A DNA stretch of 12,082 nt from a virus (Duplodnaviria; Heunggongvirae; Uroviricota; Caudoviricetes). This document shows, one piece after another, positions 141 through 9,869 of the stretch. The position numbers and the translations under genes are program-made. The stretch's first letter is position 1. Every line of letters begins with the position of its first letter. The notes beneath the pieces were generated by a model. The model had not been told where the DNA came from. It saw nothing but the letters and a program-made list of their open reading frames with translations, and did not search any database. The stretch is taken from positions 1 to 12,082 of IMG/VR virus record IMGVR_UViG_2737471840_000002. The stretch is one strand, 5' to 3'.

Positions 141-180
141 GGTGACGGTATTACCTTAAAGGTATACTCTCATACCGTCA
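141..180 (+). promoter_or_regulatory. Integrase upstream control region: operator-like site TTACCTTAAAGGTAT (151-165), -10-like TATACT (163-168), nested inverted repeats TGACGGTA (144-151)/TACCGTCA (173-180) and GGTAT-N6-ATACC (161-176)
   Basis: Direct inspection; the palindromes are exact. The operator-like site matches the TTACC-N5-GGTAA motif found elsewhere in the window at 9 of 10 positions. Confidence 0.45.
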
Positions 181-1466: not shown

Positions 1467-2126
1467 CTATCCTTCCTGGACTTTGGTAAGCGTCAGATTT
1501 CCGCAGAACACTGCGCCGGTGTCGATGTACATCTGGTTTGCATACACCAGTGGGTGATGTGCTGGCGTATGACCGAAGATGAACAAATCGGCACCGGTTA
1601 TCTCCGAGACAATACCGTCCTGCGCGTCGCTAACCCGTTCACGATTCCATATCACCATTTCTTCTGGTACTGGCTTATCGAATGCGTATTCGTTGTGCGG
1701 GTAGTCTGCGTGACAGATGACGACCTTCTTATTGCCGGTAACCAGTTCGATAATCATCGGGAGGTTGGTAATCTTTGGCAGAAGGTATTTGAGTTGCACA
1801 TCCTGCTCAGAATCAAGTTGGTGCCACCATCCACCGCCGTTTGACATCCAATGTCCGAAACTTCCGCCGTTGACCAGTGCATCCAGCATCATCTGCTCAT
1901 GGTTGCCACGAACAGCTCGGAACCACGGCATAGTAATCAAATCCAGGCATTCGACGTTTTCAGCGCCGCGGTCAACAAGGTCACCAACGGAAATAAGTAA
2001 ATCGCGCGCCGGGTCGAATGAAACTTTGTCGAGTTCGTTCATCAGCAGCGTGTAGCACCCATGCAGATCGCCGACGACGAAGATATTGCACCAGTCAGCG
2101 CCATTGATGCGTTGATATAGGTTCAT
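1467..2126 (-). CDS. Lambda-type Ser/Thr protein phosphatase (PPP-family metallophosphoesterase; PrpA/PrpB/NinI-like)
   Basis: Motifs GDLHG, GDLVDRG, GNHE in canonical order; strong recalled similarity to E. coli PrpA. Start assigned to internal ATG ([12 protein letters not shown]...) at 2126, forming an ATGA overlap with the upstream gene stop; the track ORF extends to 2246 but that would overlap the methylase gene. Confidence 0.88.
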
Positions 2127-2773
2127 GCTGCACGCTCCCGCCCCTGGTTGTCTATTGGTGACACCGGAGCATTGCTGAATGCATTTGTTAATCCGCCAAT
2201 ATCCAACGCGTATCCAGGGTGTAGTTGCACTGCCGGGTCTTCGCACTGATTACCCCAAACATCGAAGCCATGAGACGACTGGCGGGCGAACAGTTCAATG
2301 CGAGAAACATCGCCTAACAATTGCACAAGTTTTTCACGAACGACATCTGGTTTTCTTGAATGCTCAAGCCGCGGTGCGGTAAATGACTGAACGATCCCTG
2401 CATTAATGCGCGGAGGTAGTTTTCCCTTTACTGCAAACAGGCAATCTTCACTATTGGCGCGAGTCATGTGTCCCATACCCATAACCAGTTTATCTGGTTG
2501 TCGACTACCACATTTTATCCACGTGAAGCCCTTCATCGTCATCAGACGGAATCCCCAGGCTTCAACAACTTTTAGTGCTTCGAGTGGTTGTGTTGGCACC
2601 CACCACATGGCCAACAGACAGTTTTCATCGGCCAAATCCCACACAGGAAGGCGGCAGATATCCAGCACACTCATAACCGGATATTTAAAACCGGCACCGC
2701 GATTACCATCTGCGGCTTTGTCCCGGTATACCCAGGGTGGATCTGCATAGATTAGTGTGTATTTCTTAGTCAT
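2123..2773 (-). CDS. MT-A70 family DNA N6-adenine methyltransferase (orphan, no cognate restriction gene visible)
   Basis: N-terminal motif LIYADPPW (DPPW catalytic motif) right after start MTKKY; ATG at 2773 preceded by GGGGTGG SD-like sequence; track ORF starts 12 nt further upstream at GTG 2785. Confidence 0.8.
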
Positions 2774-5475: not shown

Positions 5476-6510
5476 TCAATATTTGATATACGCGTCCTGC
5501 ACTTTGCCGCCAGCGATAGCCAACATTGCTTTCTGCGCGAATTCTTCGGGAATGCCTTGGGCTATCAGATCTGCGATTACTCTGCGGTTAACGGTACGGC
5601 GATGCTCTTTATCTGCAGCTCGGCGCGCTTCTTCGTCGGCGATACGCTTCTGTTCGTCAAGGCGGGCTTTTTCTGCCGCCTCTTGGCGTCGGCGTTCCTC
5701 GGCAACGGCTTCTTCTTTTTCGCGTCGTGCGCGCTGCTCTGCTTCAATTCGCTGACGTTCTGCTACTTCAGCACGTGCTTTTTCTTCCGCCGCCAGGCGT
5801 GCCGCAGCCTCAATTTCAGCTTTCGCTTTTTGTTCAGCTTCGAGCCTGGCCTGTTCAGCAGCTTCCCGGCGGATATTCTCTTCTCGCTCAATGCGCGCTT
5901 TTTCCTCCGCTTCTTTGCGAAGTCGCTCCAGCTCAGCGGCTTCATGCTCGCGTTTTTGAGCTACTGCGAGTGATTCTTCCAGTTTCTGGATGGTTGAATC
6001 CTTGGCTACTCCAGCTTCTGCTGCGTACTCCTGCCAACTTTCATCAAGTGCTACTGATTTAGCCTCTTGAATTCGTTCCTGAATATCAGATGATGGCAAG
6101 TAGTTTCCGGAGAGATCGATCACGTCAGCTAGTGCTCGCAAATTTGTCAGGCGTTGTTGCAGTGCTTCAGTGCGTAATTTCTCAGCATTTTCCCACTCGG
6201 TGAGTGGGCGGCGTACTTCATCACGAAGACGATCGCATTCGGTTACGAAGCGTCGTAACTCTGCTTCAACTACTTTCGGCTGTTCTTTCAGGCGTTTCAG
6301 ATAATCACGTCCTGGTTTTTCTACCGCTGTTTTACTTCTTGAAACCTTCGCAGCCAGAGATGCAATGCGCTTTCTGCCTTTGTCTGTGCTAATGTCAGGC
6401 ACTTCATTAACACCTTCACGGATCTGCTCGAGAAACTTTTCCAGCCCTTTTTCAACGTAAATTCTTGGTGCCATGTCTGGTGTGATTTCGATGATTGACA
6501 ATTCACTCAT
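5476..6510 (-). CDS. Hypothetical phage protein with long E/A/R/K-rich coiled-coil (low-complexity) segment
   Basis: 344 aa; residues about 185-300 are an (E-A-x-x-K/R-A-R)n-like charged helix; globular N- and C-terminal parts. Function not recognised. Confidence 0.7.
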   Translation of the reverse strand: MSELSIIEITPDMAPRIYVEKGLEKFLEQIREGVNEVPDISTDKGRKRIASLAAKVSRSKTAVEKPGRDYLKRLKEQPKVVEAELRRFVTECDRLRDEVRRPLTEWENAEKLRTEALQQRLTNLRALADVIDLSGNYLPSSDIQERIQEAKSVALDESWQEYAAEAGVAKDSTIQKLEESLAVAQKREHEAAELERLRKEAEEKARIEREENIRREAAEQARLEAEQKAKAEIEAAARLAAEEKARAEVAERQRIEAEQRARREKEEAVAEERRRQEAAEKARLDEQKRIADEEARRAADKEHRRTVNRRVIADLIAQGIPEEFAQKAMLAIAGGKVQDAYIKY

Positions 6511-6687: not shown

Positions 6688-6702
6688 TTACCGTTGAGGT
6701 AA
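6688..6702. promoter_or_regulatory. Operator-like palindrome TTACC-GTTGA-GGTAA (OL-proximal, overlapping pL -10/+1)
   Basis: Exact 5+5 inverted repeat with 5-bp spacer. Confidence 0.6.
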
Positions 6703-6730
6703 TAATTATGCGTATATGGTTTGATGTCAA
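6700..6730 (-). promoter_or_regulatory. pL-like promoter: -35 TTGACA (plus coords 6725-6730), AT-rich -10 (about 6702-6708)
   Basis: Consensus -35 hexamer on minus strand, 16-17 bp spacer to AATTAT/TAATTA; flanked by two operator palindromes. Confidence 0.5.
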
Positions 6731-6749: not shown

Positions 6750-6764
6750 TTACCAGTTAGGTAA
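6750..6764. promoter_or_regulatory. Operator-like palindrome TTACC-AGTTA-GGTAA (OL-distal)
   Basis: Exact 5+5 inverted repeat with 5-bp spacer. Confidence 0.6.
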
Positions 6765-6776
6765 TCGAATAGGCAA

Positions 6777-6800
6777 TAAAAAAGCCGCCATAAGGCGGCT
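6777..6800 (-). terminator. Rho-independent terminator for repressor gene (stem agccgcc/ggcggct, loop, then 6 U on minus strand)
   Basis: Seen in sequence 22 nt downstream of repressor stop. Confidence 0.75.
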
Positions 6801-6821
6801 TACTTACTGAAAAATATGGTT

Positions 6822-7406
6822 TTATTGTTTGTTTTTTTCGTTCTGGTTGATGACAAATTCAATGTAACTTTCGATCTTTGCTTTCTCGGTTTCGGGTAAC
6901 AATGCGTAGCGCGAGCGATCATAGTTGATGGTCGCAGGGTCGTGCGGGTGAATCAGTAATTCATAGCCGTGACGCCCGAATGCGGATGCAACATTCTCCA
7001 GGGTGGAAATGGAAACGCTGACCTCATTGTTTAACAGGCGGCTGATTGTCACCTGGGCGACGCCGGATGCGCGGTGTAGTTTTCCCTGCGTTGAAAGGTC
7101 GCGGCTTTCGCTCATCCAGCGTTCCAGGTTGTGAGCCGCCAGCTGACCAATGTCGCTTGGGCCGACAGGCTGAAAACCTTCCTGAGAAAGCGAGCGATCG
7201 ATATCAAGCCAGTTACGTGGTTTATTGGCGGCAGCTTCAATTTTTCGCGCAACCTGGTCGCCGATAACCTTCTTGCCAAGAGCCCAGCGGTTTACCAGAT
7301 TTGCCTGAGTTCCAAGTTTTTCTGCCATCCGCGTCTGAACACCATTGAATTCACGGTCGATCAAGTCGTTGAGATTTTGCCTGCGGACGTCTTGGATACT
7401 TTTCAT
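6822..7406 (-). CDS. CI-like prophage repressor with two XRE-type helix-turn-helix domains and no LexA-like S24 peptidase domain
   Basis: 194 aa. HTH-1 about residues 20-60 (QTRMAEKLGTQANLVNRWALGKKVI), HTH-2 about residues 110-150 (ASGVAQVTISRLLNNEVSVSISTLENVA). Position and orientation equivalent to lambda cI (divergent from cro-like gene, followed by terminator and pL). No S24 motif visible. Confidence 0.65.
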   Translation of the reverse strand: MKSIQDVRRQNLNDLIDREFNGVQTRMAEKLGTQANLVNRWALGKKVIGDQVARKIEAAANKPRNWLDIDRSLSQEGFQPVGPSDIGQLAAHNLERWMSESRDLSTQGKLHRASGVAQVTISRLLNNEVSVSISTLENVASAFGRHGYELLIHPHDPATINYDRSRYALLPETEKAKIESYIEFVINQNEKNKQ

Positions 7407-7461: not shown

Positions 7462-7524
7462 TTACCCAACAGGTAAATGCACCCCATAGGTAACTATCCT
7501 TGATTTTTGTTACCTTATGGGTGA
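7462..7524. promoter_or_regulatory. OR-like tripartite operator: TTACC-CAACA-GGTAA (7462-7476), gcACC-CCATA-GGTAA (7479-7493), TTACC-TTATG-GGTgA (7510-7524)
   Basis: Three copies or near-copies of the same palindrome between the divergent repressor and Cro-like genes. Confidence 0.65.
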
Positions 7525-7535
7525 ATATTTATTAT
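7507..7535 (+). promoter_or_regulatory. pR-like promoter: -35 TTGTTA (7507-7512), 17-bp spacer, -10 TATTAT (7530-7535)
   Basis: Hexamer match and spacing; overlapped by operator 7510-7524. Confidence 0.45.
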
Positions 7536-7560
7536 CTGAAATAAATATCAGGCAATAGCT

Positions 7561-7791
7561 ATGAGCGATAACGAACATTTCGATTTCAAAAAGCACTGGC
7601 TTGCACTTACTCCGGATGAGCGTGAAGCCTTCGCACAGGAAGCCGGAACGACGAGTCACTATATCCAGACTCACTTAACAGGTAAGCGCAAAATGCCAGG
7701 TAAAGTATTGATGAATGGGCTTTTTAAAGCCTGTAAAACAAGACAATGGCTGCGCTCAAAAGCAGAACTGGCATACTTCTTCTACTCATGA
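7561..7791 (+). CDS. Cro-like small HTH regulator (putative)
   Basis: 76 aa, divergent from repressor across operator region; segment EREAFAQEAGTTSHYIQTHLTGKRK resembles Cro/YdaS-type HTH. Weak RBS. Confidence 0.5.
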   Translation: MSDNEHFDFKKHWLALTPDEREAFAQEAGTTSHYIQTHLTGKRKMPGKVLMNGLFKACKTRQWLRSKAELAYFFYS

Positions 7792-7846: not shown

Positions 7847-7861
7847 GTACCTCAAAGGTAA
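7847..7861. promoter_or_regulatory. Operator-like palindrome GTACC-TCAAA-GGTAA (9 of 10 match)
   Basis: Immediately after terminator, upstream of candidate -35 TTGATC (7879-7884). Confidence 0.45.
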
Positions 7862-9755: not shown

Positions 9756-9792
9756 TACCAGCGCGATAGCGCATTTTTTTACGCCTTAACAA

Positions 9793-9807
9793 TTACCTAT
9801 TGGGTAA
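9793..9807. promoter_or_regulatory. Operator-like palindrome TTACC-TATTG-GGTAA
   Basis: Exact match to motif, upstream of promoter-like hexamers. Confidence 0.55.
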
Positions 9808-9826
9808 TAAAATATTCTAAATTCTA

Positions 9827-9855
9827 TTGATTTCGTGTCTTATGTGGTTTTTAAT
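9827..9855 (+). promoter_or_regulatory. Promoter-like: -35 TTGATT (9827-9832), 17-bp spacer, -10 TTTAAT (9850-9855)
   Basis: Hexamers and spacing; sandwiched between two operator-like palindromes in the same way as the pL-like promoter. Confidence 0.45.
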
Positions 9856-9869
9856 TACCTCAGAGGTAA
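9855..9869. promoter_or_regulatory. Operator-like palindrome TTACC-TCAGA-GGTAA overlapping the RBS of the downstream gene
   Basis: Exact match; GAGG of the site doubles as SD for ATG 9873. Confidence 0.55.

Follow-up and report, generated by a model that had tools for sequence, protein, structure and literature searches.

The window, by which we mean the whole stretch of 12,082 nucleotides that was analysed, starts with the att core ATTGAGTGGGAATGATT (positions 1-17). This core has been published as the attachment site of phage vB_EcoP_ZX5 (ZX5) at the 3′ end of guaA, so that the window represents the left-hand 12 kb of a prophage inserted there. The int gene comes first, then genes for recombination, then rep and a cro-like gene, and finally the replication genes. 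Uetakevirus phages of E. coli, phiV10 among them, match the sequence at ~98% identity, and the best match among complete E. coli genomes covers 89% of the window at 98% identity. The accessory genes differ from those of phiV10 and ZX5. A calcineurin-like metallophosphatase gene (1467-2246, minus strand) adjoins int, where phiV10 and the guaA-integrated lysogen PEC399 carry a DUF1382 gene. A gene for a 344-aa Glu/Ala/Arg-rich coiled-coil protein (5476-6510, minus strand; phrog_1376, no Pfam match) lies between the recombination genes and a gp39-like ORF, and it is found in PEC399 and is missing from phiV10 and SPC32H.

The gene under study, rep, was listed among the ORFs with an ATG start and a product of 194 aa. 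The MKSI N-terminus of the product shows no variation across 41 homologues. The gene takes the cI position and is divergent from a conserved cro-like gene, as in SPC32H and epsilon15, and the cro-position gene itself is syntenic with SPC32H_042 and epsilon15 gp39. The features of the locus are collected in Table 1.

Table 1. Features of the rep region and further operator-like sites in the window (positions are those of the window; a point marks a feature given without strand)
Feature	Coordinates	Strand	Basis
Operator-like site TTACCTTAAAGGTAT, 1 mismatch, ~45 bp upstream of int	151..165	.	motif scan
OL operator, perfect palindrome, abuts the PL -10, 62 bp from the 6750 site	6688..6702	.	motif scan
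Putative PL-like promoter of the leftward early operon	6702..6730	-	TTGACA-17-AATTAT, 10/12 matches
OL operator, perfect palindrome, upstream of the PL -35	6750..6764	.	motif scan
rep intrinsic terminator	6782..6801	-	annotated in phiV10 at the same place
rep, immunity repressor	6822..7406 (stop codon included)	-	ORF; identity to phiV10 gp40 and ZX5 ORF21; homology to SPC32H Rep
Rep residues 153-194, tetramerisation/Ant-binding domain by homology (CAD, 'TetDloop')	6825..6950	-	homology to the 5D4Z C-terminus; role from PMC9986798
Rep residues 86-152, second HTH fold, canonical XRE/HTH_3	6951..7151	-	HTH_3 25.8 bits; aligns to 5D4Z
Rep residues 73-85, flexible linker	7152..7190	-	pLDDT <50 at 74-81
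Rep residues 1-72, N-terminal Cro/YdaS-like HTH, DNA-binding domain by homology	7191..7406	-	model; PMC9986798 and PMC9638917
OR operator, perfect palindrome TTACCCAACAGGTAA	7462..7476	.	motif scan
OR operator, degenerate, 2 mismatches, 17 bp from the 7462 site	7479..7493	.	motif scan
Putative PR-like promoter of the cro-like gene	7507..7535	+	consensus scan, 9/12 matches
OR operator, 1 mismatch, over the -35 and spacer of the PR-like promoter	7510..7524	.	motif scan
cro-position gene, 76 aa, divergent from rep	7561..7791	+	phrog_35 'transcriptional repressor', E=5.7e-13
Operator-like site, 1 mismatch, past the cro terminator, conserved in phiV10	7847..7861	.	motif scan
Operator palindrome inside the spacer of a promoter-like site (9786-9813)	9793..9807	.	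motif scan
Operator palindrome, 62 bp downstream of the 9793 site, over the ribosome-binding region of a DUF1064 gene (ATG 9873)	9855..9869	.	motif scan

The Rep/Ant work on Salmonella phage SPC32H is reportedly that of Kim & Ryu 2013 and Kim et al. 2016. A phmmer search with Rep returned the PDB chain 5D50_A, 'Repressor', at E=4e-42 over residues 1-190, and 5D4Z (repressor residues 92-198) was matched as well; the two entries are the Rep-Ant and Rep structures of SPC32H. BLASTP aligned Rep with SPC32H Rep over the full length at 42% identity (E=2e-53), and the identity to the epsilon15 repressor gp38 is also 42%. Rep is 100% identical to phiV10 gp40, ZX5 ORF21 and a dozen others, the protein-level difference from gp40 and ORF21 being nil. 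The phiV10 record describes gp40 as 'two helix-turn-helix motifs; similar to putative repressor epsilon15p38', and the updated GenBank record of epsilon15 cites HHpred 5d50_A for gp38. This means that Rep is already known, with the identical sequence in published phages and with a family for which crystal structures and an antirepressor mechanism are available. An earlier note on this DNA had taken the protein for the immunity repressor in the cI position. This assignment found support in the synteny with SPC32H rep, in the operators at PR and PL (see below) and in the ZX5 study, where overexpression of ORF21 abolished free phage and brought the endolysin and holin transcripts down by >99.9%.

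Profile search and structure prediction of the 194-aa protein have been employed for the domain analysis, as the earlier note had advised. Pfam returned HTH_3 at E=1.2e-9 in two stretches of Rep, plus related HTH families. Scanned alone, residues 85-194 gave HTH_3 at 25.8 bits, above the gathering cut-off of 23, and residues 1-75 remained sub-threshold (HTH_3 16.1 bits, YdaS-type HTH 20.6 bits). The profile score alone certifies only the second unit as an XRE HTH; for the first unit, the HTH was confirmed by the fold in the predicted model. The AlphaFold2 model was obtained from a 41-sequence alignment with pLDDT 82, the single-sequence version (pLDDT 45) being unusable. It contains helical bundles at 4-59 and 86-151 with a disordered linker between them, and after the second bundle a short extended segment is followed by a long helix. 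The helices of the N-terminal domain span 4-19, 24-31, 35-43 and 50-59. Foldseek found the SPC32H Rep chains of 5D50 and 5D4Z as the closest PDB folds to the model, followed by the HTH domains of SinR, P22 C2, DdrO and ClgR, and the C-terminal half aligned with 5D50/5D4Z at a target-normalised TM-score of 0.73-0.76. Both of the HTH units read from the sequence in the earlier note are thus present as folds, and residues ~153-194 form a third element, which had been overlooked.

In PMC9986798, a secondary account of SPC32H Rep, three parts are distinguished: the DNA-binding domain (DBD) at the N-terminus, a dimerisation domain in the middle (MDD), and at the C-terminus the CAD or 'TetDloop', which tetramerises the protein and binds the antirepressor. 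Rep has the same three-part architecture, and its second HTH fold is, by sequence homology, the counterpart of the MDD. The N-terminal domain is 53% identical to that of SPC32H and carries a net charge of +5. The middle domain (34% identity) is neutral with net charge 0. In the C-terminal domain (45% identity), I160, Y162, D163, L170 and K175 are conserved. The two proteins differ in 58% of their residues, and their linkers are unrelated (8% identity, length variable).

The palindrome TTACC-N5-GGTAA, mentioned in the earlier note, is far above chance: eight sites with at most one mismatch were found in the window against 0.23 expected, and none of 200 shuffles reached eight. The information is confined to a symmetric 17-bp sequence, ATTACC-N5-GGTAAT, which is a perfect two-fold palindrome; no conserved sub-site was found within ±20 bp of the operators, where the flanks carry <0.4 bits. 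The same operator motif occurs in phiV10, SPC32H and epsilon15, and the spacing of the OR triple (17 + 30/31 bp) is common to the window, phiV10, SPC32H and epsilon15. In the epsilon15 record, 17-bp palindromes are annotated as 'protein_bind: repressor', one of them upstream of gp19 (ant). In phiV10 and SPC32H, the site upstream of int recurs at the corresponding position with an unchanged sequence; this points, as far as sequence can tell, to control of int expression by Rep as well. Pairs of operators separated by 62 bp (6688/6750 and 9793/9855) bracket promoters at two loci, the exact spacing being about six helical turns. This spacing is kept in the window, phiV10, SPC32H and epsilon15, and it would allow a single tetramer to hold both sites from one face of the helix. 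An imperfect palindrome, CTGAAATAAATATCAG (CTG-N10-CAG, 7536-7551), is placed downstream of the PR-like -10 and ahead of the start codon of cro; it is not a canonical LexA box.

With the question of which HTH unit sets the operator specificity, covariation between operator and recognition helix was sought in four scans of viral contigs, which gave 80 phiV10-like and only two divergent Rep loci. One of the two (L090) retains TTACC-N5-GGTAA, in the other (L091) it is mildly altered to TTACC-N5-GGTCA, and both helices vary across just these two loci. In the rep-cro intergenic region of L091 (1405-1440), two adjacent TAACC/TTACC-N5-GGTCA sites are present and TTACC-N5-GGTAA is lost. The Rep of L091 is 81% identical to P0118. 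The change of operator in L091 is possibly an immunity variant.

The earlier note had argued that induction would need an antirepressor or another mechanism, to be looked for beyond the window. Indeed, a search of the window for homologues of Ant or of Bro-N proteins brought up none (tblastn E=0.2 at best), and a LexA box of the form CTGT-N8-ACAG is likewise missing from it. The antirepressor came to light in phages with the same Rep. In phiV10, p24 is a neighbour of the tail fibre gene; its 85-aa product hits 5D50_E ('Anti-repressor protein', E=2.9e-46), and a perfect LexA box TACTGTGTATTTATACAGT stands ~20 nt upstream of its start codon; SPC32H ant has the same position beside the tailspike gene. 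In ZX5, too, an 85-aa ant stands in this arrangement behind a LexA box. The lysogen PEC399, the rep of which is 99.8% identical, has the 85-aa Ant likewise beside the tailspike gene, 88% identical to SPC32H Ant and with the LexA box TACTGTATAAATATACAGT upstream. The LexA box upstream of ant is conserved in six phages from four host genera. The position of ant and the box are common to SPC32H and the close relatives of the window. Rep and Ant occur together in 35 of 36 phage records, and among 5,426 complete E. coli genomes rep was found in 537 and ant in 529. The window's own prophage presumably still carries ant, and its Ant would bind Rep here too.

A Rep palindrome lies ~45 bp from the LexA box upstream of ant in all six phages (L001 20825-20895; L002 19960-20030; L009 2370-2440; alignment A3), and ant may be under the double control of LexA and Rep itself. 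When the phiV10 type is compared with SPC32H, Ant (88%) is far better conserved than Rep (42%), the Ant-binding domain of Rep being 45% identical, while the operator half-site is common to both. Judged from these sequences, cross-induction, and possibly cross-immunity, between the Escherichia and Salmonella phages of the phiV10 type and SPC32H is plausible.

Inducibility by DNA damage has been documented for close relatives. Treatment of a ZX5 lysogen with mitomycin C raised the titre from 1e7 to 1e9 PFU/mL, i.e. ~100-fold, and prophages of the phiV10 species were induced 21- and 47-fold by a DNA-damaging microcin. The 'anti-repressor' of the ZX5 study is a Bro-N protein with an Ant-like C-terminal domain and not the small Ant, which is labelled 'hypothetical' in the ZX5 record. 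The Bro-N gene of ZX5 is located at L009 1078-1773 and that of phiV10, truncated before the Ant-like domain, at L001 19646-20230, both on the minus strand. Since this larger protein is encoded downstream of ant in many phiV10-like phages, it might be asked whether induction proceeds mainly through it, with the small Ant in a minor role. The C-terminus of ZX5 ORF4 (Bro-N) is 40% identical to SPC32H Ant (E=5e-20), and its overexpression brought the prophage count down 1000-fold and the repressor transcripts down by 75%. Nevertheless, the gene is absent from SPC32H and PEC399 and truncated in phiV10, whereas the small ant is present in 35 of the 36 records, with its conserved LexA box. We consider the Bro-N route unlikely as the main one, and the LexA-controlled small Ant is preferred.

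The role of the second HTH fold is the point on which the results depart from the earlier note. A search with residues 86-194 alone returned 241 relatives, many of them of 137-176 aa. In these short relatives (P0095, P0096, P0102, P0103, P0113, P0114, P0122, P0124) the N-terminal domain is missing, and the protein consists of an MDD-like HTH, a CAD and a basic low-complexity tail. Q118, T120 and R123 are conserved across the long and short architectures, and a faint RstR-family signal was seen in the second-HTH module of Rep. On sequence grounds, the C-terminal half of Rep resembles a small regulator complete in itself, with a Cro-like HTH fused in front. It is conceivable, though we think it quite improbable, that the second HTH is the still-functional DNA-binding head of a complete small repressor, in which case a tetramer with eight HTHs would form, the middle ones adding non-specific or secondary contacts, for example by bridging the 62-bp pairs.

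In the proposal of the earlier note, both HTH units of Rep could bind DNA, one monomer spanning the half-sites of the palindrome or the protein bridging neighbouring sites. It gains something from the second unit being the better match to the XRE DNA-binding profile, from the conservation of Q118, T120 and R123 on helix 3 of this unit, from the occurrence of the MDD and CAD module alone, at the N-terminus and with the sole HTH, in the 137-176-aa relatives, and from a linker of ~25 residues that is predicted to be flexible. However, an exact two-fold palindrome has to be read by two identical heads, and no sequence similarity can be detected between the HTH units of Rep; identical reading of the half-sites by both is therefore not expected. 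The operators offer no extra conserved motif in their flanks, and the second unit is neutral whereas the N-terminal domain is basic. Moreover, in PMC9986798 and PMC9638917, the SPC32H homologue is described with an N-terminal DBD and an MDD, and it binds DNA as a tetramer in which each palindrome is taken up by a pair of N-terminal domains contributed by separate dimers (PMC9638917). Taken together, these results make DNA binding by both units very unlikely, and a second HTH fold acting mainly in dimerisation is the reading that we retain.

The remaining alternatives have next to no chance. For a lambda-like, RecA-stimulated cleavage of Rep by a cryptic or novel protease nothing was found in favour, as inducibility by DNA damage does not discriminate between the mechanisms; the Pfam search to E<=1 gave no Peptidase_S24 or other peptidase or catalytic domain in Rep, in agreement with the lack of an autoproteolytic domain noted earlier, the linker LSQEGFQPVGPSD has no AG or CG dipeptide and hence no Ala-Gly/Cys-Gly cleavage site, and all 194 residues are covered by the HTH, linker, HTH and CAD of a solved structure that is not a protease, which counts against a hidden one. 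An antitoxin-like or accessory regulator, as implied by the BP9 record ('plasmid maintenance antidote'), by other records that speak of a VapI/HigA-like protein and by a weak, sub-threshold HigA match (18.7 bits against a cut-off of 47.7), is at variance with the cI-position synteny with the genetically defined SPC32H rep, the presence of operators at PR and PL, the effect of overexpressing the identical ZX5 ORF21 and an ORF list with no toxin gene adjacent, and it is hardly credible.

We are highly confident that the ORF encodes Rep, the immunity repressor of a phiV10/epsilon15-like (Uetakevirus) prophage at the guaA 3′ end and the orthologue of SPC32H Rep, and that it would be released from DNA, uncleaved, by a LexA-controlled Ant. 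In the proposed mechanism, the N-terminal Cro-like HTH would read the two-fold palindrome ATTACC-N5-GGTAAT, copies of which lie over or on either side of PR, PL and several further promoters. Dimerisation would be the main task of the second HTH fold (~86-152), and the last ~40 residues would join two dimers into the DNA-binding tetramer. Upon induction, Rep would stay uncleaved; DNA damage would inactivate LexA and derepress the 85-aa ant, expected beside the tailspike gene, beyond the window and ~25 kb deeper in the prophage. Ant would then bind the C-terminal part of Rep and take the tetramer off the DNA. For SPC32H, PMC9638917 describes an Ant tetramer that binds two Rep dimers and disassembles the DNA complex. 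What the present analysis contributes is the homology, the fold, the statistics and positions of the operators, and the presence of ant with its LexA box in phages with the same Rep and in a lysogen. The repressor activity of the identical protein, the inducibility by mitomycin C, the domain roles and the mechanism of SPC32H Ant are taken from the literature.

Comparison with known systems places Rep among the repressors that are inactivated by protein binding. The Gifsy-1/-2/-3 repressors GfoR, GtgR and GfhR (Lemire et al. 2011), 186 CI with Tum, and N15 AntC share the combination of a non-cleavable repressor and a small LexA-controlled antirepressor, with the antirepressor outside the immunity region and with reversible induction. 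The Gifsy repressors, in contrast, are ~150-aa proteins with a single HTH that resemble the N-terminal part of lambda CI over almost their entire length; they are thought to be dimeric and have neither the second HTH nor the CAD, and their antirepressors belong to another family (Tum homologues). With 194 aa, two HTH folds and a CAD, Rep is not of this short type (GfoR/GtgR/DicA/RacR), from which it is set apart by family description. The lambda CI/LexA family shares with Rep the genome position, the divergent cro-like gene, several operators at PR and PL, and SOS-coupled induction, but it undergoes S24 self-cleavage, which the Rep type lacks. Rco of plasmid pLS20, with Rap, combines a DBD at the N-terminus with a p53-like tetramerisation domain at the C-terminus and is inactivated by its partner protein, and SPC32H Rep is grouped with Rco in PMC9986798; Rco lacks the middle dimerisation domain with the HTH fold. 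Within the Rep type, epsilon15 has a Salmonella host and a replication module unlike that of the window.

The value of the finding as a discovery is small, as the exact protein has been published with the same annotation and tested by overexpression, and its main use lies in annotation. About 10% of complete E. coli genomes have this rep, usually under the name 'helix-turn-helix domain-containing protein', and ant is usually named 'hypothetical protein'; both could now be correctly named. Prophages that bear rep would be predictable as SOS-inducible through LexA and Ant, and not through cleavage of the repressor.
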